Source of the DNA: Bdellovibrionales bacterium
Lineage (GTDB): Bacteria > Bdellovibrionota > Bdellovibrionia > Bdellovibrionales > UBA1609
Direction: 5' to 3'
NCBI GenBank assembly: GCA_965205945.1
Contig: CBDBIB010000002.1
Coordinates: 160,001 to 224,000 of the forward strand
DNA length: 64,000 bases
Under the pieces are notes generated by a model, which was given only the letters and a program-made list of their open reading frames with translations, searched no databases and was not told the DNA's origin. Below are positions 13,902-60,440 of this stretch, piece by piece (the first letter of the stretch is position 1; every line of letters begins with the position of its first letter). A program made the translations under genes and the position numbers.

Positions 13902-14969
13902 TTGGGTATGCAAAGTTATATACACCAAATTAGTCCTATAGCTGTATCTATTTATGGAAATATTGCCATACGCTGGTATGGATTAGCTTATCTAGCAGGC
14001 TTAGTGTTGGGTTTATTACTCATGAGGAAAATGAGTAAAAGAGGGGGTAACCTTTTAGATTTTGAACAACTTTCAGACTTTTTAACATGGATAGCTTTGG
14101 GAGTTATGGGTGGAGGAAGACTTGGATATTGCTTATTTTACTCTCCTGATCTTTTAATTGATTTTTCTACAAGCTTTCCTTTTTGGGGAGGGTTAAGAAT
14201 ATGGGAAGGTGGGATGTCTAGCCATGGTGGAGCTCTAGGGGTTCTTATAGCTTCTTATTTTTTTAGTAGAAAACATAAAGTCTTTTGGATGCATACTAGT
14301 GACCTTACTGTTTTAGGTGCAAGCCTTGGTTTTTTCTTTGGAAGAATTGCTAACTTTATAAATGGTGAGCTTTATGGAAGAGTTGTTAAAAAACCAATTT
14401 CATGGGCTGTAAAGTTCCCTCAAGAGCTAACAGAGTGGGTTTATTATAGCCAAAATAAGTTAATGAATTTAGAACCACTTGCTCAAAAATTTGCAGGAAC
14501 TATAGGTGTGCCACAGGGATTAACAGTTTATAATTGGGTAGAGCTTGTTTCTAGATATGCTTTAGATTCTAAAGCAAAGAGTATTGTTGAGGGCTTTGTT
14601 TTATGGATTCAAAATCAGTGTATAGAAAAAAATCAGTTGGTATTAGAAGCTTTGCAAACAGTTTTACCAGCAAGGTATCCATCACAGCTTATTCAAGCTT
14701 TGTGTGAAGGTTTATTAGTCTTTATCATATTAAACGTTATTTGGTTGAAGCCTAGAAAACCTGGTGTTTTAACAGCATGGTTTGGTATTTTGTATGCATT
14801 TACAAGAATTATTGGAGAGCAGTTTAGAATGCCAGATGCACAAATAGGTTTTCAGGCTTTCGGATTAACAAGAGGTCAATGGTTAAGTGTAGGGATGTTG
14901 ATAGCGGGAGTTATACTTTTAATTTACTCTTTAAGACGTGATGTTGAAAAAATAAAAGGCTGGTCGTAA
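13902..14969 (+). CDS. lgt: Prolipoprotein diacylglyceryl transferase
   Basis: IRWYGLAY, GGMSSHGG, GRIANFINGELYGR, PSQL motifs. Confidence 0.96.
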   Translation: MGMQSYIHQISPIAVSIYGNIAIRWYGLAYLAGLVLGLLLMRKMSKRGGNLLDFEQLSDFLTWIALGVMGGGRLGYCLFYSPDLLIDFSTSFPFWGGLRIWEGGMSSHGGALGVLIASYFFSRKHKVFWMHTSDLTVLGASLGFFFGRIANFINGELYGRVVKKPISWAVKFPQELTEWVYYSQNKLMNLEPLAQKFAGTIGVPQGLTVYNWVELVSRYALDSKAKSIVEGFVLWIQNQCIEKNQLVLEALQTVLPARYPSQLIQALCEGLLVFIILNVIWLKPRKPGVLTAWFGILYAFTRIIGEQFRMPDAQIGFQAFGLTRGQWLSVGMLIAGVILLIYSLRRDVEKIKGWS

Positions 14970-15116
14970 ACCTAGATAAAACTATCTTAGATTAAATTTG
15001 AATCACTATGTTTTTAAAAGAAAGTACTTCTTAATAACGTTTTAGATATTAGATAAAATGGGGGAATAGGGTGCTTAAGATTAATGATATGCTATGACCC
15101 TTTGTTCTCTTTAGTA

Positions 15117-15530
15117 GCTTGAGTTCAGACTTTTTAAATCTGGTTTAATACTCTATTTTCATGGGCTTAAACACGTATTGCTGGTTTAAAAGGACGTAGA
15201 CAATATGGCAGTTAATGCTGATAAAAGATTCACTATGAAGTTTTTTAGGACTTTGATGTTAAGAGTGTTCAATATGAAACTCTTTCTTTAAAATTCCTAA
15301 AACAGTTTTAACAATATATCTTTTTCTCAGTAAAAGTTTATCAAAAAGTGGTACAAACTTATTCTTCATATTTGATTTTAAATTAGTAATTAACTTAAAC
15401 ACTTTTAGCCATAAGTTTTTTTAAAGAGGTTCTTTTAAGATATACCCCTTATCTCCAAAAAGCTTTCCAAATAAACCATCTGTAAGGTTCTCTAAAGGTT
15501 TGATGGCGACTGATTCTTTTGTTGTTACAA
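15117..15530 (-). mobile_element. IS982-family relic (transposase C-terminal half with stops/frameshifts plus right end)
   Basis: Minus-strand translation GKLFGDKGYI...LITNLKSNMKN...DKLLLRKRYIVKTV...IEHS*HQSP...FIVNLLSAL..YC.RPFKP; end GCTTGAGTTC resembles ACCTGAGTTC. Confidence 0.8.
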
Positions 15531-15889
15531 ACACTAATAGGGCTTGAGTCTAGAATAGATATTCCTGTAATTTGATTCCATGAGTGAGTTTAGGAAAATA
15601 AAGAGTTAAGGTGCTCAATATTTTTTAAGTTCCACAAACCTATTATAGGACAAGAGTTTTGGGAAATAAGGTTTTAGAAATTTTTAAACATAGCCTATAT
15701 AAAAAGCTTTAAAATTTCTAAAACCAGAAAACTGGAACAACAAACAGATTGTGATAACTTTAGATTCAGATAACGCAGGGGGAAAACCCTTTCTTCCTTT
15801 TTCTGGGTGTGAGTTTGCGCTGTTCGTAATTTAGTCCTAAAATAAAGTCGTCAACAAGAGTAAAAACCTCTATAATTTGGTTCTCTTTG

Positions 15890-16025
15890 AACTCTTGTTA
15901 ATGGCGACTTAACTACACATGTTACTAATATGAGCCATATGTATTGAGTAATGCAGCTTTAGTAACCCCCTAACATCTCTGGTTGGAATACTTTTAAAGT
16001 TATTAATATGGATGGTGTGCTTTTA
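15890..16025 (+). pseudogene. Degenerate orphan fragment of a DUF285/BspA-repeat adhesin tip
   Basis: Aligns with 22617-22750 (actcttgttaatgg...catgttacta.tatga...atgcagctttag...); small indels break the frame. Confidence 0.75.
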
Positions 16026-16058
16026 TAAAACATGCCGATAAGGAGGATTATGTTACTA
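16016..16058 (+). repeat. Left 43-bp inverted repeat containing a dif-like site (16031-16058)
   Basis: CATGCCGATAA-GGAGGA-TTATGTTACTA fits 11-6-11 XerC/spacer/XerD layout; 41/43 identical to reverse complement of 16527-16569. Confidence 0.85.
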
Positions 16059-16526
16059 CGTCTATTTACGTCTATTTTAAAATTATATTTAAGTTTAAAA
16101 GTATTTAATTATAAAAGTTTAGACTTTATTTTTTTAAAATTATTATTTTCAATAAAATTTTTATCATTAAAAATAAGGACTGCTTTAGAATTTACTTTAA
16201 AAATATTTAATATTTAGCGCTCTTTTTTTAAAGCTTAGATTTAAATATCTTTATTTATCATAGCTGTTATTTTAACCAACATCTAAGTTTAAAAGTTATT
16301 AAGATACAGCATATGTATTATATAAAATTAAATAAATATTTAAAGCGATATTCTTTAAGGTTTTTTTTTAATATTTATTTGTATAGAGCTATTATTTAAA
16401 TAAGAAAATCTTGTTAATTAAACGTAACTATTTTGCAACATTTTTATGTCACAAAGAAATTTACACTTAAGCACCATAGTTAAAATCAGCAGGTCAAATC
16501 AAAAATAATGTGGTTTTAAGCAGAAA

Positions 16527-16569
16527 TAGTAACATAATCCTCCTTATCGGCATATTTTGTAAAAGCACA
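16527..16569 (-). repeat. Right 43-bp inverted repeat containing a dif-like site (16527-16554)
   Basis: Reverse complement reads TATGCCGATAA-GGAGGA-TTATGTTACTA, same 6-bp spacer as the left copy. Confidence 0.85.
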
Positions 16570-16625
16570 GATTTTAAATGAAAATAAAAATGTAGAATTA
16601 GAGCTAAAAAACTATTTAATTTCCT

Positions 16626-16652
16626 CTAATTGTTAAGCTTTTCATCCGAAAT
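16626..16652 (+). promoter_or_regulatory. Candidate sigma-28-like promoter for the adhesin
   Basis: CTAA-N15-TCCGAAAT (consensus TAAA-N15-GCCGATAA), 7 nt before ATG 16660. Confidence 0.3.
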
Positions 16653-19600
16653 ATACAATATGTATAGAGTATATGACTTATTAAAAAATTTCATAGAAAT
16701 AGGTGTGAAAGCTCTAACTTTCTTCACAATTTTACTATTAACTCCCCATTCTCTAGCCACCCCAAGTTCTTTTGTTTTTCAAGGTCAAATTGTAAAACCC
16801 AATGGAGACGCTTTAGAAGAAAATAATGTCAGCTTTCTTGTTCAAGTTTTATCCTCCATGGATCATTGTCTTCTTTACGAAGAAAGTTTTAATCTTAATA
16901 TGATAGGATCAAAGGGAGTTTTTAACTTAAACGTTGGGTCTGGAATAAACACAGGAAATGGAGGCTTAACAAATTTATCTAAAGCTTTAGACAATTCTTT
17001 TTTAAACAATAAAAGTCTTAGTTGTGCCTTTGGGTCTTCATACACTCCAACCTTAAACGATACAAGAAGGCTTAGAGTAACTTTTGATCATGGCAGCGGC
17101 CCTCTTACTTTAACAAATGATCATATAATTCACAGTGTGCCCTATGCTCAGTATGCCGGCAAACTTGGTGGAAAAGCTGTTAATGATTTTATTCAAGTAA
17201 GTCGTGGTGTTACTCAAAGCAATTTAGAGACCGTGTTTGATAATGATGCCAATCAAAGGGAGCTTATGGCTTTAATTAATGGCAGCTCTAATCAATACTC
17301 CCCATTAAGCATCAGTGGAGCTAGCTCTTTACCGAGTTTTTCAAGCTCTCATCCACCACCTAATTCTCAGGCAGGAGATATTTGGTATAACTCTACAAAT
17401 AATCAAATCATGTACTACAATGGATCAGCAGCCACTGTTGTTGGTAAAGGTAGTGGAACTGTAACCAGTATTACAGCAGGAAGTGGCTTAAGTGGTGGAA
17501 CCATTACAAACAGTGGTACAATTTTAATTGCACCAGGGGGTGTTTTAAACAGTCATCTTGCAAGTGGTATTCATGCAAATAAAATCACAAGTGGAATTCT
17601 ACCAAGCTCAGTGGTTCCCACAGGAACTGACAATACAAAACTTCCTCTTACAGGAGGGGTTTTATTAGGTGACCTTAACTTTAATAATAATCAGATTCTA
17701 AACACAAGTCATATTATGCAAAACCCAGGAAGTACCATGACCTTAGGTTCTTATACGAATTTAGAAGAAGTTAGTCTTTTAGGGTCTATGAACATGAGCA
17801 ATGCTGGGGCTACTTGGTACAATAGTGACTCTGGAGCGCTTAAGTATTGGAATGGTGTTAGCTTAGAAGTTTTAAGCACCTTAAGTAGTGCATCAAGTGT
17901 TTTAGTCAATGCTCCTTTAACTTCTTCAGGTGGTAGCAACCCAACAATAAGCATCAACCTTGGTAGGGGTTTATACAACAACAGTGGAAACATAGATTTA
18001 GATTTAGATTCTTCTGGGGGTTTAGAGTTTAATATAAATAAATTAAAAGTAAAAGTAGGAAGTGGTTTAAAAATTACGCCAAGGGGTTTAGAAGCAGATA
18101 TAGGAAGTGGTTTAGGACAGCTCATGCAAGTGGACACTCTTCCTGTGTGTACTAGTGGGGAAAAGATTCAACGAAACCCTGGTGCTATAATAAGCTATTC
18201 TTGCGTGGCTGATATTGATACGGACACAGACACAAGTCTTTTAGGAAGCCAGGCTCAAGGGGATCTTACAGGAACCTACCCAAACCCTAGTCTTACACCA
18301 ACGGGTGTAACCCAAGGGGCGTACCCAAAAGTTAGAGTTGATGTTAAAGGAAGAGTGGTTGAGGGTTTAAGTTTATTAAAATCTGATATACCAGATTTAA
18401 ATGGAGAAAAGATCACTTCAGGAATCATTAGCACAGCTAGATTAGATGTTGGCACAGGGAGCAATCAGCTTATTAAGCTTGATAGCTCTTTAAGACTGCC
18501 TGCTGTTGATGGAAGTCGGCTTATAAACTTACCAAGTAGTGCTGATAATATGGGAGATGGTATAGCTCGATTAAATATAAATCTTAACCAAAATTATTTA
18601 AGTGGAGACGGTGATAATGAGGGAATTATTATTGATGCTAGTGGAAGGGTTGGGGTTGGTAAGGCTAGTCCTGAGGCTTTATTAGACGTTGCTGGAACAG
18701 CAAGAATAACACAAATTTGTGATGAAAGAGGAGCAAATTGTAAGGATGTGTCTGAAGGTTGGAGTTTAGCAAGTCTGGCGGCAAACACGGTGACCTACAC
18801 TCCATTTGGAAACATTCAGGCTACAGATGTAGAAGGTGCACTTAATGAACTTGAATCTAGAAAAGCTCCAATAACTAGAACTATTAGAACGGCTTTAAAC
18901 AGTGGATTAAGTGGAGGCGGAGATTTATCAACTGATAGAAGTTTAAGTGTAGACATTAACAAAACTACAGAAAAAACTACGGCTGATTCTTTAGACAGTG
19001 TTTTAATGTATGATGTTTCTCAAAGTGGTCTTAAAAAAATAACACATTCAAACTTTTTAAACGGTTATTTAAAAGCTTCTTTAGGCACAAGTCGAGGCAA
19101 CGCAATGGATGCTGGTGGGGTGCCTAGTTGTGAAGCCAATGAAAAACTTCAAATGAGTGAAGGTCCTATTTATTTATGGTCATGTGTGACAGACACAAGT
19201 CTTTTAGGAAGCCAGGCTCAAGGGGATCTTACAGGAACCTACCCAAACCCTAGTCTTACACCAACGGGTGTAACCCAAGGGGCGTACCCAAAAGTTAGAG
19301 TTGATGTTAAAGGAAGAGTGGTTGAGGGTTTAAGTTTATTAAAATCTGATATACCAGATTTAAATGGAGAAAAGATCACTTCAGGAACCATTAGCACAGC
19401 TAGATTAGATGTTGGCACAGGGAGCAATCAGCTTATTAAGCTTGATAGCTCTTTAAGACTGCCTGCTGTTGATGGAAGTCGGCTTATAAACTTACCAAGC
19501 AGTGCTGATAATATGGGAGATAGTATAGCTCGATTAAATATAAGTCTTAATCAAAATTATTTAAGTGGAGACGGTGATAATGAGGGAATTATTATTGATG

Positions 19601-22600
19601 CTAGTGGAAGGGTTGGGGTTGGTAAGGCTAGTCCTGAGGCTTTATTAGACGTTGCTGGAACAGCAAGAATAACACAAATTTGTGATGAAAGAGGAGCAAA
19701 TTGTAAGAATGTGTCTGAAGGTTGGAGTTTAGCAAGTCTGGCGGCAAACACAGTGACCTACACTCCATTTGGAAACATTCAGGCTACAGATGTAGAAGGT
19801 GCACTTAATGAACTTGAATCTAGAAAAGCTCCAATAACTAGAACTATTACAACGGCTTTAAACAGTGGATTAAGTGGAGGTGGAGATTTATCGACTGATA
19901 GAAGTTTAAGTGTAGACATTAACAAAACTACAGAAAAAACTACGGCTGATTCTTTAGACAGTGTTTTAATATATGATGTTTCTCAAAGTGGTCTTAAAAA
20001 AATAACACATTCAAACTTTTTAAACGGTTATTTAAAAGCCTCTTTAGGAAAAAGTCGAGGCAACGCAATGGATGCTGGTGGAGTGCCTAGTTGTGAAAGC
20101 AATGAAAAACTTCAAATGAGTGAAGGTCCTATTTATTCCTGGTCATGTGAAGTTGATCAAAACACAAGTCTTTTAGGAAGCCAGGCTCAAGGGGATCTTA
20201 CAGGAACCTACCCAAACCCTAGTCTTACACCAACGGGTGTAACCCCAGGGACGTACCCAAAAGTTAGAGTTGATGTTAAAGGAAGAGTGGTTGAGGGTTT
20301 AAGTTTATTAAAATCTGATATACCAGATTTAAATGGAGAAAAGATCACTTCAGGAACCATTAGCACAGCTAGATTAGATGTTGGCACAGGGAGTAATCAG
20401 CTTGTTAAGCTTGATAGCTCTTTAAGACTGCCTGCTGTTGATGGAAGTCGGCTTATAAACTTACCAAGCAGTGCTGATAATATGGGAGATAGTATAGCTC
20501 GATTAAATATAAATCTTAACCAAAATTATTTAAGTGGAGACGGTGATAATGAGGGAATTATTATTGATGCTAGTGGAAGGGTTGGAGTTGGTAAGGCTAG
20601 TCCTGAGGCTTTATTAGACGTTGCTGGAACAGCAAGAATAACACAAATTTGTGATGAAAGAGGAGCAAATTGTAAGGATGTGTCTGAAGGTTGGAGTTTA
20701 GCAAGTCTAGCGGCAAACACGGTGACCTACACTCCATTTGGAAACATTCAGGCTACAGATGTAGAAGGTGCACTTAATGAACTTGAATCTAGAAAAGCTC
20801 CAATAACTAGAACTATTAGAACGGCTTTAAACAGTGGATTAAGTGGAGGTGGAGATTTATCAACTAATAGAAGTTTAAGTGTAGACATTAACGGAACTAC
20901 AGAAAAAACTACGGCTGATTCTTTAGACAGTGTTTTAATGTATGATGTTTCTCAAAGTGGTCTTAAAAAAATAACACATTCAAACTTTTTAAACGGTTAT
21001 TTAAAAGCCTCTTTAGGAAAAAATGCAGGCAACGCAATGGATGCTGGTGGGGTGCCTAGTTGTGAAAGCAATGAAAAACTTCAAATGAGTAATGGCCCTA
21101 TTTATTTATGGTCATGTGTGACAGACACAAGTCTTTTAGGAAGCCAGGCTCAAGGGGATCTTACAGGAACCTACCCGAACCCTAGTCTTATACCAACGGG
21201 TGTAACCCAAGGGACGTACCCAAAAGTTAGAGTTGATGTTAAAGGAAGAGTGGTTGAGGGTTTAAGTTTATTAAAATCTGATATACCAGATTTAAATGGA
21301 GAAAAGATCACTTCAGGAACCATTAGCACAGCTAGATTAGATGTTGGCACAGGGAGCAATCAGCTTATTAAGCTTGATAGCTCTTTAAGACTGCCTGCTG
21401 TTGATGGAAGTCGGCTTATAAACTTACCAAGCAGTGCTGATAATATGGGAGATGGCAGGGCTCGATTAAATATAAATCTTAACCAAAATTATTTAAGTGG
21501 AGACGGCGATGATGAAGGAATCACTATTAACAATAATGGTGATGTTTCTGTCTCTGGAAGCATTTCTACTCCAGGATCTATTAGTACATCTACTGTTACA
21601 TTTTTAAAAAAAGTTGGAACAGTTACAACCCCTTGTGACAGTTTAACTGAGGGTACTTTAAGGTATAATTCTTTAGGAAAAAAACTGGAGTTTTGCGATG
21701 GGGTAGTGTGGAAAACTTTTTTAAGTAACAATGATCCAACAATTTCTATTACAAACTCTTTAAGTGGATCTTACATTAATTCTATTAATGAGGGAGGTTT
21801 TAGGGTTTTAGGAACATGTTCTGAAAATGGTGAGCTTATCACATTCTCACATGGTACAAGCTTTATTACTTGTTCTAATAAAAGCTTTAGTGGTGATATT
21901 GATTTTTCAAGCCTAAGTGATGGTCCACTTTCACTAACTGCTAGTATCACAAACATTGCTGGAAATTCTAAAACTTCAGGTGTTTTAAATCTAATAAAAG
22001 ATACTAAACCCCCTATTGTCAGTATTGGAAGCCATATAATAAGCAGTTCAAATTCTATAGACTTTCCCATAACTGTAAGCCAAGACTTTAGTAGTATAAA
22101 CCTAGAAAAGAGCAATGTCAGCCTTACTGGAGCTACTACAGGTTGCACAGTTTTAGTAACAAATGGAACAACTATTAATCCAAGTATTAGGATTTCAGAC
22201 TGCAGTGATGAAACCGGAAATATTCAAATTACAATCGCCTCTGGTGTTGCACAAGATGCAGCCGGAAACCTGTCTGATGTAGTTAGTTTAAGCACTGAAA
22301 TACAAAATTTAGGAACCCCTTTTACAGCTAAATTTAGAATTTATGGTAGTGATTTGAATTTAAATCTTAGGTTAAATTCTTCTTATACATATAACTTTAT
22401 GGTTAATTGGGGGGATGGAACCTCGGGAGTTGTTACTTCATCAAGTGATTTAGATAAAAATCATACTTATTCATCTTCAGGGACTTATATAGTTAAAATC
22501 ACTGGGCGCTGCCCATATCTTAACTTTCGTGATAGCGAGCAAATAATTGAGGTTACAGAATTAGGAGACACAGGGTGGGAAAGTTTTAGTTATATGTTTT

Positions 22601-23565
22601 ATAAAGCAGATAACTTAACTCTTGTTAATGGTGGCTCAACTAGACATGTTACTAGTATGAACTCTATGTTTTCTTATGCAGCTTTAGCTAACCCTGACAC
22701 CTCTAACTGGGACACTTCTAAGGTTACTAGTATGGGCTATATGTTTTCTTATGCAGCTTTAGCTAACCCTGACACCTCTAACTGGGACACTTCTAAGGTT
22801 ACTAATATGAGCTGGATGTTTTATGATGCAGCTTTAGCTAACCCTGACACCTCTGACTGGGACACTTCTAAGGTTACTGATATGGGCTTGATGTTTTATG
22901 ATGCAGCTTTAGCTAACCCTGACACCTCTAACTGGGACACTTCTAAGGTTACTGCTATGAACTCTATGTTTTATAATGCAGATTTAGCTAACCCTGACAC
23001 CTCTGACTGGGACACTTCTAAGGTTACTGATATGGGCTTTATGTTTTCTTATGCAGCTTTAGCTAACCCTGACACCTCTAACTGGGACACTTCTAAGGTT
23101 ACTAATATGGGCTTGATGTTTTATAATGCAGATTTAGCTAACCCTGACACCTCTGACTGGGACACTTCTAAGGTTACTAATATGTATCAGATGTTTTATA
23201 ATGCAGCTTTAGCTAACCCTGACACCTCTAACTGGGACACTTCTAAGGTTACTAATATGGGCTTGATGTTTTATAATGCAGATTTAGCTAACCCTGACAC
23301 CTCTGACTGGGACACTTCTAAGGTTACTCGTATGGGCTATATGTTTTATAATGCAGATTTAGCTAACCCTGACACCTCTGACTGGGACACTTCTAAGGTT
23401 ACTGATATGGAGAGTATGTTTAATAATGCAGCTTCTTTTGATCAAGACATCAGTTCATGGAATGTTTCTAACGTTGTCTATTGCGAGAGTTTTTCAAGCC
23501 GAACTTTAACTTCTTGGACTCGTGCTGAAAAACCTAATTTTACACGTTGTAGCCCTGGTTATTAA
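16630..23565 (+). CDS. Giant mosaic fibre-like surface adhesin: signal peptide, Bdellovibrio fibre-type N-domain, repeated tail-fibre stalk, Ig/PKD-like domains, DUF285/BspA repeat tip (true start probably 16660 or later)
   Basis: FQGQIVKPNG..LE..NVSF N-domain; GDLTGTYPNP, VDVKGRV, KITSGTISTARL, LPAVDGSRL, GLSGGGDLS fibre motifs; VNWGDG PKD-like; WDTSKVTxMxxMF repeats. Confidence 0.85.
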   Translation: MLSFSSEIYNMYRVYDLLKNFIEIGVKALTFFTILLLTPHSLATPSSFVFQGQIVKPNGDALEENNVSFLVQVLSSMDHCLLYEESFNLNMIGSKGVFNLNVGSGINTGNGGLTNLSKALDNSFLNNKSLSCAFGSSYTPTLNDTRRLRVTFDHGSGPLTLTNDHIIHSVPYAQYAGKLGGKAVNDFIQVSRGVTQSNLETVFDNDANQRELMALINGSSNQYSPLSISGASSLPSFSSSHPPPNSQAGDIWYNSTNNQIMYYNGSAATVVGKGSGTVTSITAGSGLSGGTITNSGTILIAPGGVLNSHLASGIHANKITSGILPSSVVPTGTDNTKLPLTGGVLLGDLNFNNNQILNTSHIMQNPGSTMTLGSYTNLEEVSLLGSMNMSNAGATWYNSDSGALKYWNGVSLEVLSTLSSASSVLVNAPLTSSGGSNPTISINLGRGLYNNSGNIDLDLDSSGGLEFNINKLKVKVGSGLKITPRGLEADIGSGLGQLMQVDTLPVCTSGEKIQRNPGAIISYSCVADIDTDTDTSLLGSQAQGDLTGTYPNPSLTPTGVTQGAYPKVRVDVKGRVVEGLSLLKSDIPDLNGEKITSGIISTARLDVGTGSNQLIKLDSSLRLPAVDGSRLINLPSSADNMGDGIARLNINLNQNYLSGDGDNEGIIIDASGRVGVGKASPEALLDVAGTARITQICDERGANCKDVSEGWSLASLAANTVTYTPFGNIQATDVEGALNELESRKAPITRTIRTALNSGLSGGGDLSTDRSLSVDINKTTEKTTADSLDSVLMYDVSQSGLKKITHSNFLNGYLKASLGTSRGNAMDAGGVPSCEANEKLQMSEGPIYLWSCVTDTSLLGSQAQGDLTGTYPNPSLTPTGVTQGAYPKVRVDVKGRVVEGLSLLKSDIPDLNGEKITSGTISTARLDVGTGSNQLIKLDSSLRLPAVDGSRLINLPSSADNMGDSIARLNISLNQNYLSGDGDNEGIIIDASGRVGVGKASPEALLDVAGTARITQICDERGANCKNVSEGWSLASLAANTVTYTPFGNIQATDVEGALNELESRKAPITRTITTALNSGLSGGGDLSTDRSLSVDINKTTEKTTADSLDSVLIYDVSQSGLKKITHSNFLNGYLKASLGKSRGNAMDAGGVPSCESNEKLQMSEGPIYSWSCEVDQNTSLLGSQAQGDLTGTYPNPSLTPTGVTPGTYPKVRVDVKGRVVEGLSLLKSDIPDLNGEKITSGTISTARLDVGTGSNQLVKLDSSLRLPAVDGSRLINLPSSADNMGDSIARLNINLNQNYLSGDGDNEGIIIDASGRVGVGKASPEALLDVAGTARITQICDERGANCKDVSEGWSLASLAANTVTYTPFGNIQATDVEGALNELESRKAPITRTIRTALNSGLSGGGDLSTNRSLSVDINGTTEKTTADSLDSVLMYDVSQSGLKKITHSNFLNGYLKASLGKNAGNAMDAGGVPSCESNEKLQMSNGPIYLWSCVTDTSLLGSQAQGDLTGTYPNPSLIPTGVTQGTYPKVRVDVKGRVVEGLSLLKSDIPDLNGEKITSGTISTARLDVGTGSNQLIKLDSSLRLPAVDGSRLINLPSSADNMGDGRARLNINLNQNYLSGDGDDEGITINNNGDVSVSGSISTPGSISTSTVTFLKKVGTVTTPCDSLTEGTLRYNSLGKKLEFCDGVVWKTFLSNNDPTISITNSLSGSYINSINEGGFRVLGTCSENGELITFSHGTSFITCSNKSFSGDIDFSSLSDGPLSLTASITNIAGNSKTSGVLNLIKDTKPPIVSIGSHIISSSNSIDFPITVSQDFSSINLEKSNVSLTGATTGCTVLVTNGTTINPSIRISDCSDETGNIQITIASGVAQDAAGNLSDVVSLSTEIQNLGTPFTAKFRIYGSDLNLNLRLNSSYTYNFMVNWGDGTSGVVTSSSDLDKNHTYSSSGTYIVKITGRCPYLNFRDSEQIIEVTELGDTGWESFSYMFYKADNLTLVNGGSTRHVTSMNSMFSYAALANPDTSNWDTSKVTSMGYMFSYAALANPDTSNWDTSKVTNMSWMFYDAALANPDTSDWDTSKVTDMGLMFYDAALANPDTSNWDTSKVTAMNSMFYNADLANPDTSDWDTSKVTDMGFMFSYAALANPDTSNWDTSKVTNMGLMFYNADLANPDTSDWDTSKVTNMYQMFYNAALANPDTSNWDTSKVTNMGLMFYNADLANPDTSDWDTSKVTRMGYMFYNADLANPDTSDWDTSKVTDMESMFNNAASFDQDISSWNVSNVVYCESFSSRTLTSWTRAEKPNFTRCSPGY
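18229..21520 (+). repeat. Intragenic tandem repeat, about 3.4 copies of a 963-969-bp (321-323 aa) unit
   Basis: Unit starts (g/a)acacaagtcttttaggaagcc at 18229, 19192, 20161, 21124; copies nearly identical. Confidence 0.97.
22648..23472 (+). repeat. DUF285/BspA (PARCEL-type) array: 10 full 75-bp units plus one divergent capping unit
   Basis: gttact recurs every 75 bp from 22648 to 23398; unit VTxMxxMFxxA(A/D)LANPDTS(N/D)WDTSK. Confidence 0.97.
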
Positions 23566-23828: not shown

Positions 23829-23987
23829 CCTATTTGATAAACTGTTACTGAGGAATAAGATATATTGTTAAGACTGTTTTGTCAGTATTAACAGTATATT
23901 GTCTGTGCCCTTTTAAACCATCAATCCATATTCAAAAACCCACAAAAATAGAATGTTACAGCAGATTTAAAAAGTTCGAATTCGGGT
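23829..23987 (+). mobile_element. Internally deleted IS982-family relic with right end
   Basis: Inverted homolog of 15117-15346 lacking about 70 bp; LFDKLLLR...YCLCPFKPSIH; ends GAATTCGGGT. Confidence 0.75.
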
Positions 23988-58877: not shown

Positions 58878-59207
58878 AATAACTCCTTTTAAGTGTTTTA
58901 TTAATTTTTTTTAGATAAAACTCTTTTATATTTTAAGTTAGATTTAGTTGCAAGGGAAAAAACAAGTAGTACTTGGTCATACTACTATAGTGTAATTAAT
59001 AAATAGGCTTTGGAACTTTTATAGCCTTATTTTTTAGCTTTTATCTTTATAATCATTAAAATATACTGCTTAGAATCAAGTTCTACTTTATTACAAGACT
59101 CTATAATTGTGTAGGATAAACAAAGATTTTTTTGCTTTTTAAGGGGCTTTCTGGTGTTGGAATCTAAATTCACTAGTTGTGGGTTAAGCAATACCTTATC
59201 GAGTATA

Positions 59208-60440
59208 TCAAGAATAAGAGTGAAGTTTTATTTTCTCTTTAATATGATTGATAATTTTATTAGTTGCTCCTGTAGACTTTAATAATCTAGCTTGAATTAA
59301 GATTTTTAAGTTAGAAAGTCCTTCTTGATCAAGAAGGAGTAAATTTGAGAGCTTCTTTGAAAAATCTATTTTATTCTTACAAACTTTTACAAAGGAATGT
59401 TTTTTTGAATAGTATTTAGCTTCAGTATTATTATTAATGTAAGGGCCTACTAACACAGGTAAACCGTGTGAAAGAGGCTCTATAACAGAGTGAACTTTCT
59501 TTTTAAAGGCACCTCCTACAAAAGCTAAGTCGCTTTGAGCATAAAGATTAAATAAAAGGCCTGTGGAGTCTACAATTATAACTTTATTTTCTAAGTCAGG
59601 ATCAAGTGAATAAAGGCTAGGGGAGAAAGATTTAAAGATATTTTGAAGTTCTTTGATATTTTTTTTTGTAGGATCATGAGGAACTGCAATAACTTTATTT
59701 AGAGTTTTTTTATTTAAGGCTTTTATAACACCGTGTGAAATTTGTTTTAGATCTTTGTTCAAAACAGAGCCTAGTATTAGAGTGCGACCTTCTTTTTTAG
59801 GTTTAAAGTTAAGATTTTTTACTCTATTTACAATCTCATCAATTCTAGGGTCGCCGTCAACAGATAGGTTATAGTTATGATTGAATTTTTTAATAAATAG
59901 CTCCTTATCATTTTCTGAAACAAAGCTTATGTGATCAATTTTTTTATAAGTTAAAGAGAATAAAAGTTTTTCTCCAAAACAGCTTTTAGAGTTTTCCATT
60001 TTGGCAAACACAATGGAGGGGATATTTTTAGCTTTTATTTGGTAAATAAGCTCAGGCCAAAGATCAGTCCTTGAGAAAAGAATTATTTTAGGATTTATTC
60101 TTTTTATAAGACTAGCAATAGGAGCTTTTAAATCAACGGGCATGGGAATATATCCATCAATAAGATTAAAATTTTTAAGAGTATTAAAATATGAAGGAGA
60201 TGAATAAGAAACAATAATTTTTTCTAAAGGATATTGTTTTTTTAAAGATCTTATTAAAAATTTAGCATGTTCAAATTCACCAGAAGAGGTATGGATCCAA
60301 ATAGTTTGGATATTAGTATTTTTTACTAAGTTTGTTTTTCTATTAAACAGGTAATGCCTTGTTTTTTTTGAAAATAATATTCCAAAAAGCATAAAAAAAG
60401 GAAAAATTAGTAAACAGATCAAGCGATAGATTAAAATCAT
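59208..60440 (-). CDS. waaA: Kdo transferase
   Basis: IWIHTSSGE, DLWPEL, VPH, AFVGG, HSVIEP motifs. Confidence 0.88.
   Translation of the reverse strand: MILIYRLICLLIFPFFMLFGILFSKKTRHYLFNRKTNLVKNTNIQTIWIHTSSGEFEHAKFLIRSLKKQYPLEKIIVSYSSPSYFNTLKNFNLIDGYIPMPVDLKAPIASLIKRINPKIILFSRTDLWPELIYQIKAKNIPSIVFAKMENSKSCFGEKLLFSLTYKKIDHISFVSENDKELFIKKFNHNYNLSVDGDPRIDEIVNRVKNLNFKPKKEGRTLILGSVLNKDLKQISHGVIKALNKKTLNKVIAVPHDPTKKNIKELQNIFKSFSPSLYSLDPDLENKVIIVDSTGLLFNLYAQSDLAFVGGAFKKKVHSVIEPLSHGLPVLVGPYINNNTEAKYYSKKHSFVKVCKNKIDFSKKLSNLLLLDQEGLSNLKILIQARLLKSTGATNKIINHIKEKIKLHSYS

Follow-up and report, generated by a model that had tools for sequence, protein, structure and literature searches.

Two questions are raised by a locus in a 64,000-nucleotide (nt) stretch of the Bdellovibrionales bacterium assembly GCA_965205945.1 (contig CBDBIB010000002.1, positions 160,001 to 224,000 of the forward strand, or C2:160001-224000, hereafter the window): whether an AT-rich segment enclosed by two inverted dif-like sites is an invertible switch for the giant surface-fibre gene placed immediately downstream, and which recombinase would turn it. 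The genome comprises 1.87 Mb with 32.5% GC in 5 contigs. The structure is real and non-random, and the description that suits it best is that of an invertible switch of a new type, built on dif mimics. The reading favoured here, at a probability of roughly 0.55, is that it is one of several related switches turned by the XerC/XerD recombinases of the host, and that these switches would set the fibres that are expressed. Alignments of paralogous loci indicate that the segment has been inverted among them; Xer catalysis, ongoing switching in populations and an effect of orientation on expression are what we infer.

A dif-type core is composed of two 11-nt arms around a 6-bp central region, and partner sites need to share this central region for complete exchange. 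In the window, a repeat search found a single inverted pair, of 53 nt and 89% complementary, whose first 43 nt were identical at 41 positions, the mismatches being the outer positions 11 and 16 (Table 1). Both repeats contain (C/T)ATGCCGATAA-GGAGGA-TTATGTTACTA, a 28-bp core of the 11-6-11 type with the TTATGTTACTA arms facing inward, and the ATG of the fibre gene is found 90 nt past the right repeat. An earlier note on this DNA had described these repeats, the inward-facing XerD-like arms, the 468-bp AT-rich segment between them and the distance of about 90 bp to the start, all of which were borne out by the repeat search and by reading of the sequence. Moreover, the pattern GATAA-N6-TTATGTTAC, with one mismatch at most, occurred twice in the window against 0.05 expected occurrences, and none of 100 shuffles gave two.

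Table 1. Features of the switch locus, in window positions (aa, amino acids; ORF, open reading frame)
Feature	Position	Strand	Description
Distal flank X	15890..16015	+	Non-coding, decayed remnant of a DUF285 repeat; common to 6 of 8 full switch loci
Left inverted repeat	16016..16068	+	Core 16031-16058: XerC-type arm CATGCCGATAA, spacer GGAGGA 16042-16047, XerD-type arm TTATGTTACTA
Invertible AT-rich segment	16059..16526	.	468 nt, GC 0.16-0.24, without conserved ORF
R end of the segment	16393..16526	+	Sole part conserved between species; faces the gene in the window (state A)
Right inverted repeat	16517..16569	-	Core 16527-16554, spacer 16538-16543, XerD-type arm innermost
Proximal flank Y, fibre-gene leader	16570..16659	+	Near-identical before 9/9 paralogs, with few differing positions
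Giant fibre/adhesin gene	16660..23565	+	2301 aa, ATG 16660; ORF open from TTG 16630

The fibre protein presents a signal-peptide-like N-terminus and three C-terminal DUF285 stretches (PF03382, E 6.4e-83), and its comparison with PDB sequences by phmmer gave 0 matches. Genes of the type II secretion system (T2SS) or pilus, maf and lgt are the housekeeping neighbours of the locus. A tblastn search of the same genome revealed nine paralogous fibre genes that are 99.3-100% identical over the first 300 aa, with C-terminal 300 aa that are 75-86% identical among the six members with a DUF285 tip; in the remaining three, one of which is cut by a contig end, this part is unrelated. As judged from these comparisons, the family is one of a constant base and a variable tip. 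The 554-bp unit formed by the segment and its repeats was found in eight full-length copies, seven of them 94-100% identical and one 84%, and in one half copy, and the genome-wide search found no copy away from fibre genes. The core was placed exactly 131 nt before the ATG in 9/9 paralogs, and for this reason the copies are taken to belong to a duplicated gene unit. The half copy (C1:289256-289432) carries a single repeat, starts at the equivalent of about 16393 and has lost the distal repeat, keeping the R end beside an intact 1694-aa gene. By blastn, the distal flank of the window locus was 97-100% identical to its counterparts elsewhere in the set and 75-81% identical to 75-bp DUF285 repeats within the fibre genes; by blastx, it matched paralog residues 1987-2027 with 47-52% identity across 40 aa.

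The alignment of the copies with 400-nt flanks distinguished two flank types, X, the decayed DUF285 repeat, and Y, the leader with the start of the fibre gene. With X...Y as the reference, the window orientation was found at C2:61989 and C3:99315, and the opposite one at C1:68060, C2:116498 and C1:521565; the R end is proximal in four genes (window, C2:61898, C3:100004 and the half copy at C1:289165) and the other end, the L end, in five. In the comparison of the window with C1:68060, 143 nt of each flank were 100% identical and the 554-bp unit between them was inverted. Whatever the state, two polymorphic bases of the outer repeat (TATAAAAC on the X side and TACAAAAT on the Y side) remain attached to the flank, and the first inner bases (ACTAC... 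vs ACTAT...) travel with the segment, which places the inversion junctions within the 27-nt core ATGCCGATAAGGAGGATTATGTTACTA. The inner sequences are mosaics, and no more than one 10-nt indel and one base separate the state A copy at C2:61989 from the state B copy at C3:589924; segments of opposite state being nearly identical, orientation is not an old, diverged character. A 10-nt tandem duplication (tacgtctatt) was also observed at the L end (window 16059-16078), present in three of seven close copies independently of orientation state.

Evidence of inversion was also found in a second species. A search with the fibre N-terminus in four congeners detected the family in one of them only, G003, with 16 matches, 12 of which covered residues 1-285. 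Two of these 12 genes (C5:413101 and C5:531456) present inverted cores of the form GTGCTGATAA-TATGGA-TTATGTTACTA, with first bases 531 nt apart and the ATG about 110 nt later; nine G003 loci on other contigs were examined as well, and just one of them showed a site, a weak one located 1.1 kb upstream, the other eight having none. The outer flanks are shared by the two G003 switch loci and the inner ends are exchanged between them; by BLAST, the loci are exact inversions of each other over 556 nt, and their plus and minus matches overlap by 30 nt at the repeats. The perfect repeat in this species is restricted to the 27-nt Xer core, with arms as in dif and a spacer, TATGGA, that is unlike both dif and the switch of the window genome. 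Between the species, only the arms and about 135 nt of the R end align (window, C3:99315, C1:289165 and the two G003 loci). Conserved arms, a coordinated change of spacer and decay elsewhere form the pattern that selection for Xer binding would leave. In both genomes, then, paralogous loci with identical flanks show opposite orientations with junctions in the core, as expected of the invertible segment proposed from the window alone.

The resemblance of the sites to dif was assessed against the genome's own dif. A genome scan with ATAA-N6-TTATGTTA returned 20 hits, namely 17 switch cores, C1:58571-58598 and two unrelated sequences, and C1:58571-58598 was the only non-switch site that also had the GATAA arm. 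This site, AATGCTGATAA-GGTATA-TTATGTTACAA, is located in the 50-60 kb bin (10-kb bins) of the cumulative GC-skew maximum of C1, where the skew turns from positive to negative; it is identical at 25/25 positions to a single G003 site and relatives of it occur as single copies elsewhere in the family (matches in 9 of 41 genomes, and 0 for a reversed-pattern control in the window genome). It also matches at 21 of 28 positions the dif of B. bacteriovorus HD100, TCTTCTGATAA-GTTATA-TTATGTAACGG, as given in the accessible text of PMC2731167. The GC-skew maximum, the sites of the relatives and the likeness to HD100 together argue that C1:58571-58598 is probably the chromosome's dif. The switch core CATGCCGATAA-GGAGGA-TTATGTTACTA matches it at 9/11 and 10/11 positions of the arms and at 3/6 of the spacer (GGAGGA vs GGTATA). 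The dif-like nature of the sites, also put forward in the earlier note, therefore held against the genome's own dif in both arms and in the 11-6-11 spacing, and the switch ends are mimics of the chromosome's dif with the same arm types, the same spacing and a private central region. Equal spacers were found in seven of the eight full loci, as GGAGGA pairs in six of them, window included, and as a GGGGGA pair in one (C3:589946/590426), which was counted as spacer covariation and looks like a central-region change passed between partner sites.

Other observations concern dif-like sequences in general. The 219 bp ending at dif (C1:58388-58606 in the window genome, G000, and L063 (G003:C11) 2271-2489 in the congener) were 99.5% identical between the genomes, against about 85% for the recO-gmhB-xerC region, and beside dif the identity ended just past the XerD arm, which indicates either strong constraint or a recent transfer of dif-ending DNA, perhaps by a Xer-exploiting element. 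A second, degenerate dif-like site, ATACTGATAA-GTTTTC-TTATGCTACAA (G000 C1:423630-423647), has flanks 79% like the dif block and is possibly what remains of an attachment site. A relative from a different genus carries two facing dif-like cores (G022:C52:2842-2902), both with the spacer GTTATA and with about 12 nt between the XerC-type arms, and a contig of a further congener (G002:C94:1-25) starts exactly with a dif-like core, spacer TTAAAC, beside an unrelated reverse-strand ORF; this last genome also has a separate dif-like site (C71:18089).

As for the enzymes available, five PF00589 matches were found in the window genome, corresponding to a XerD-like protein of 302 aa (C2:242734-243642; 263 bits with TIGR02225), a XerC-like protein of 305 aa (C3:142843-143760; 160 bits with TIGR02224), a 430-aa integrase (C3:770484) and two ORFs of 198 and 265 aa. 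The XerD-like and XerC-like proteins both preserve the R..K..HxxR..H..Y residues. One serine recombinase match, a 238-aa ORF (C3:212660), was also present, and the genome has no gene of the IS110/Piv type. No recombinase gene was found beside any of the nine loci of this genome, the nearest tyrosine recombinase to the window locus being 66 kb away (C2:242734). In G003, a genome-wide scan revealed only two PF00589 proteins, both XerC/XerD-like, and one serine recombinase in a 628-aa open frame. The xerC-like genes of the two genomes are orthologous, with 85% nucleotide identity and recO-gmhB synteny. The simplest reading of this inventory is that XerC/XerD act on the switch.

The R end has been conserved across the two species and retained by the half copy; it is probably an outward-reading promoter or leader, both features pointing to such a candidate. 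A search of Rfam over window positions 14000-17500, with E up to 1, found no family reaching its gathering score; the sole weak match, snoR116 at 15210-15281 (21.7 bits vs 47, E 0.73), is outside the segment and is a chance match. Two further candidates for expression signals at the sites were rejected. The XerC-type arm contains CCGATA, the –10 element of FliA, and a σ28 promoter based on it would read into the segment, with no TTAAG 16 nt upstream in either flank. The GGAGGA spacer followed by TTATG could have been the ribosome-binding site and start of a 61-aa ORF (16032-16217), which has no conservation in G003, where the spacer is TATGGA and the region is not conserved.

Several results weigh against the XerC/XerD-driven switch or limit its reach, and part of them concern expression. 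No convincing promoter could be read in the R end, a σ70 scan giving 13 matches in 950 nt against 6.5 in shuffles. The candidate promoter outside the segment, raised as a caveat in the earlier note, is present as a σ70-like match (TTGTTA-18-TACAAT, 16630-16659), which in so near-background a scan says little. A degenerate FliA-type box was also found in the leader (CTAAT-N15-CCGAAA, 16626-16651), agreeing at 8/11 positions with the attack-phase (FliA) consensus TTAAG-N16-CCGATA of B. bacteriovorus given in the accessible text of PMC3627812 and having the same score in 9/9 paralogs of the genome. In G003 the box scored 10/11 in 7/7 scored switchless paralogs and 9/11 in the two switch loci, five further loci without the start motif being left unscored, and the last 60 nt or so of flank Y are common to the switchless paralogs of that species. 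With a FliA-type box outside the switch, the promoter of the gene may not be inside the segment. The leader box would be either a promoter modulated by the switch or a box decayed where the switch took over, at about even odds, the second being favoured.

The remaining adverse points concern distribution, recombination and enzyme. The pattern TTATGTYRC-N455-485-GYRACATAA, sought over 109 genomes, was found in the window genome only (seven loci) and in none of the other 108, the gap range leaving out G003 (about 506) and C3:99315. Eight sequencing runs were listed, four of them containing part of the stretch, all as Logan contigs and with no RNA run among them. Over 15400-17400 the contigs of these four runs break at the repeats (beginning at 16032 or ending at 16553), none spanning a repeat together with unique flank, and one 151-nt contig (run X4) joins the L end to flank Y (opposite strands, 16067/16529), a junction likewise present in paralogous copies. 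The spacers of C1:521587/522066 are unequal (GGAGGA vs GGGGGA), and this locus may be locked. A spacer shared by several loci should permit recombination between them, and past events of this kind are suggested by two loci with a Y flank on both sides (C3:589924-590554 and C1:651587-652328), in which the distal Y is cut after about 80 nt or shortly past the ATG. Both Xer proteins score under the NCBIfam equivalog cut-offs (263 vs 329.6 and 160 vs 335), so that their roles are assigned by likeness only. In G003, moreover, the gene order recO-gmhB-(switch-fibre-orf)-xerC places the xerC-like gene next to one switch-fibre cassette, which makes a dedicated invertase possible and keeps open a role of the XerC-like protein as a specialised partner. 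This cassette (G003:C5:528000-538500) is made up of the switch, a fibre gene of 1074 aa and an ORF of 224 aa, inserted between two genes, gmhB and the xerC-like one, that are adjacent in the window genome.

Three other explanations have to be weighed. The loci could be fossils of rare RecA-dependent inversions between the 43-53-nt repeats, spread by duplication and gene conversion, with no programmed switching or regulatory role: the mosaic copies do show gene conversion among loci, repeats of this length in the window genome would suffice for occasional homologous exchange, and the run contigs, by breaking at the repeats, give no evidence of two orientations in the population. Such fossils are nevertheless unlikely, since every junction is inside the core, the two G003 loci are inverted even though their perfect repeat is the 27-nt Xer core only, and in both species the arms are still dif-like, with spacers changed jointly in both repeats of each locus, while the rest has diverged beyond alignment. 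A real switch could instead be turned by another recombinase, that is, the 238-aa serine recombinase, the 430-aa integrase or the divergent XerC-like protein alone as a dedicated invertase, as in Mollicutes, in which case the dif likeness would reflect shared enzyme ancestry and not use of the dimer-resolution machinery. The divergence of the XerC-like protein from its family model and the position of its gene beside the G003 cassette speak for this explanation, as does Ureaplasma, where, in the accessible text of PMC3599477, XerC inverts phase-variable loci and a different recombinase binds dif. It is given only a small chance, because the two tyrosine recombinases of G003 would leave none to spare for dif if one were dedicated, the serine recombinases of the two genomes differ in kind (238-aa ORF vs 628-aa frame), and each core has two different arms, as in dif, which fits a heterodimeric XerC/XerD site.

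Least probable of all, and very unlikely, is the insertion before the fibre genes of a mobile non-autonomous element, either a miniature inverted-repeat transposable element (MITE) or a cargo-less dif module such as those on Acinetobacter plasmids. Terminal inverted repeats, a length of about 550 bp, the lack of an ORF and the eight full copies plus a half copy would suit such an element, the presence of the unit in only 2 of 12 full-length G003 paralogs is what gain would produce, and another repeat family is found just upstream (15121-15890). The earlier note had named a common MITE or insertion sequence (IS) end as what would overturn its proposal; the repeat does recur at nine loci, yet always at the same place, 131 nt before a paralogous ATG, and nowhere else. 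In the window and the aligned copies, neither a target-site duplication nor a direct repeat was visible at the unit ends, the flanks being homologous, and the core occurs in the genome at the nine switch loci and dif only, which leaves no autonomous partner. Metagenome contigs gave 0 matches to the exact core of 25 nt, and 0 to a degenerate 37-nt pattern covering R end plus arm. Both orientations are found at homologous sites, with exchange within the core, and the emptied dif module that had also been suggested was not borne out, given the conserved 135-nt segment end and no trace of lost cargo.

The upstream repeat family itself is non-coding and occupies the ORF-free gap between lgt and the switch, with at least ten partial copies in the genome at 72-97% identity. 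Pieces of it are also located just 3′ of fibre genes (for example, window 23830-23983) and adjoin the probable dif (C1:58387-58500 and 59073-59218). It includes an 18-nt hairpin (GGTTTTAGAAATTTTTAA / TTTAAAATTTCTAAAACC) at window 15670-15725, a piece whose summed contig depth in run X1 was 10-20 times that of neighbouring bins, and which is therefore highly repeated in the sample.

The switch driven by XerC/XerD can be compared with other invertible systems. Invertible switches are normally run by dedicated invertases, and plasmids and integrating elements are known to carry Xer sites other than dif. The fimS switch (FimB/FimE) and the capsule invertons of Bacteroides are similar in that a few hundred bp between short inverted repeats are placed just upstream of surface-structure genes, and in that several loci of a genome have one repeat type, with combinatorial surface variation as the result; unlike them, no locus of the window genome has a dedicated invertase gene beside it, the repeats copy the chromosomal dif, and the promoter within the segment is here only a candidate. 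In Acinetobacter plasmids, reversible inversion between pXerC/D sites that have opposite orientations and the same central region was demonstrated by polymerase chain reaction (PMC9947245). Within the accessible text of that paper, the systems share opposed 28-bp XerC/XerD-type sites, identical central regions and a segment found in both orientations, host Xer being proposed there, and they differ in that the Acinetobacter pairs are plasmid-borne and bound multi-kb modules of resistance or other genes, whereas the segment described here is chromosomal, 468 nt long and non-coding. It is also repeated before nine paralogs of one gene family, a position that suggests gene regulation, and cargo of the Acinetobacter type is absent, the window segment having no conserved ORF and residing on large contigs with the housekeeping genes lgt, maf and T2SS. 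Ureaplasma parvum XerC (UU222) inverts DNA at short repeats, varying surface proteins, and CodV binds dif (PMC3599477). The likeness consists of a Xer-family tyrosine recombinase (presumptive in our case), inversion at short repeats and surface variation; the repeats are not described as dif copies in the accessible text of that study, whereas here the sites mimic dif and G003 has two enzymes in all.

With respect to the fibres, the mosaic adhesive trimer (MAT) fibres of Bdellovibrio bacteriovorus are a family of long surface fibres whose N-terminal part is invariant and whose C-terminal tips vary (PMC10769870). The fibres studied here would likewise be long surface fibres with an invariant N-terminus (99-100% over 300 aa) and divergent tips, a likeness that is limited to the constant-N/variable-C pattern. 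Membership of the MAT family is defined by an invariant N-terminal domain, a trimeric beta-prism shaft and a variable C-terminal tip, and the present family is known from paralog sequences alone. The accessible text of PMC10769870 is silent on inversion control: the terms "promoter", "heterogene" and "subpopulation" do not occur in it, and "invert" refers to inverted microscopes only. A literature search covering Xer/dif with inversion, invertons and Bdellovibrio found no account of dif-mimic invertible switches, nor one of phase variation by inversion in Bdellovibrio-like predators, most subscription journals being outside its coverage; the closest cases were the Acinetobacter plasmid sites and the Xer-named invertases of Mollicutes.

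If the switch driven by XerC/XerD operates as proposed, the housekeeping XerC/XerD pair would bind both inverted cores and exchange strands at the edges of their identical central regions, flipping the 468-nt AT-rich segment; owing to the private spacer, the switch sites would not recombine productively with dif. A promoter or leader in the R end would then read through the repeat into the gene, the window copy being ON and the five copies of opposite orientation OFF, and the outcome would be a combinatorial, heritable yet reversible choice of the fibre tips displayed. A more far-reaching version, which we put forward as tentative and rather doubtful, is that the dimer resolvase XerC/XerD has been recruited as a genome-wide invertase by means of dif copies with a private spacer, so that eight independently flippable loci and one fixed locus would provide up to 2^8 repertoires. 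Since Xer activity is tied to replication and septation, switching would possibly be coupled to division of the filamentous growth form, and siblings from one prey cell would differ in their prey-binding fibres.

If true, a set of dif mimics in the chromosome that inverts regulatory DNA ahead of a whole family of surface-fibre genes would constitute a new use of the Xer machinery and a worked example of how a private central region separates such sites from dif. Moreover, should prey recognition be the role of these fibres, the switch would serve as bet-hedging with respect to prey range.

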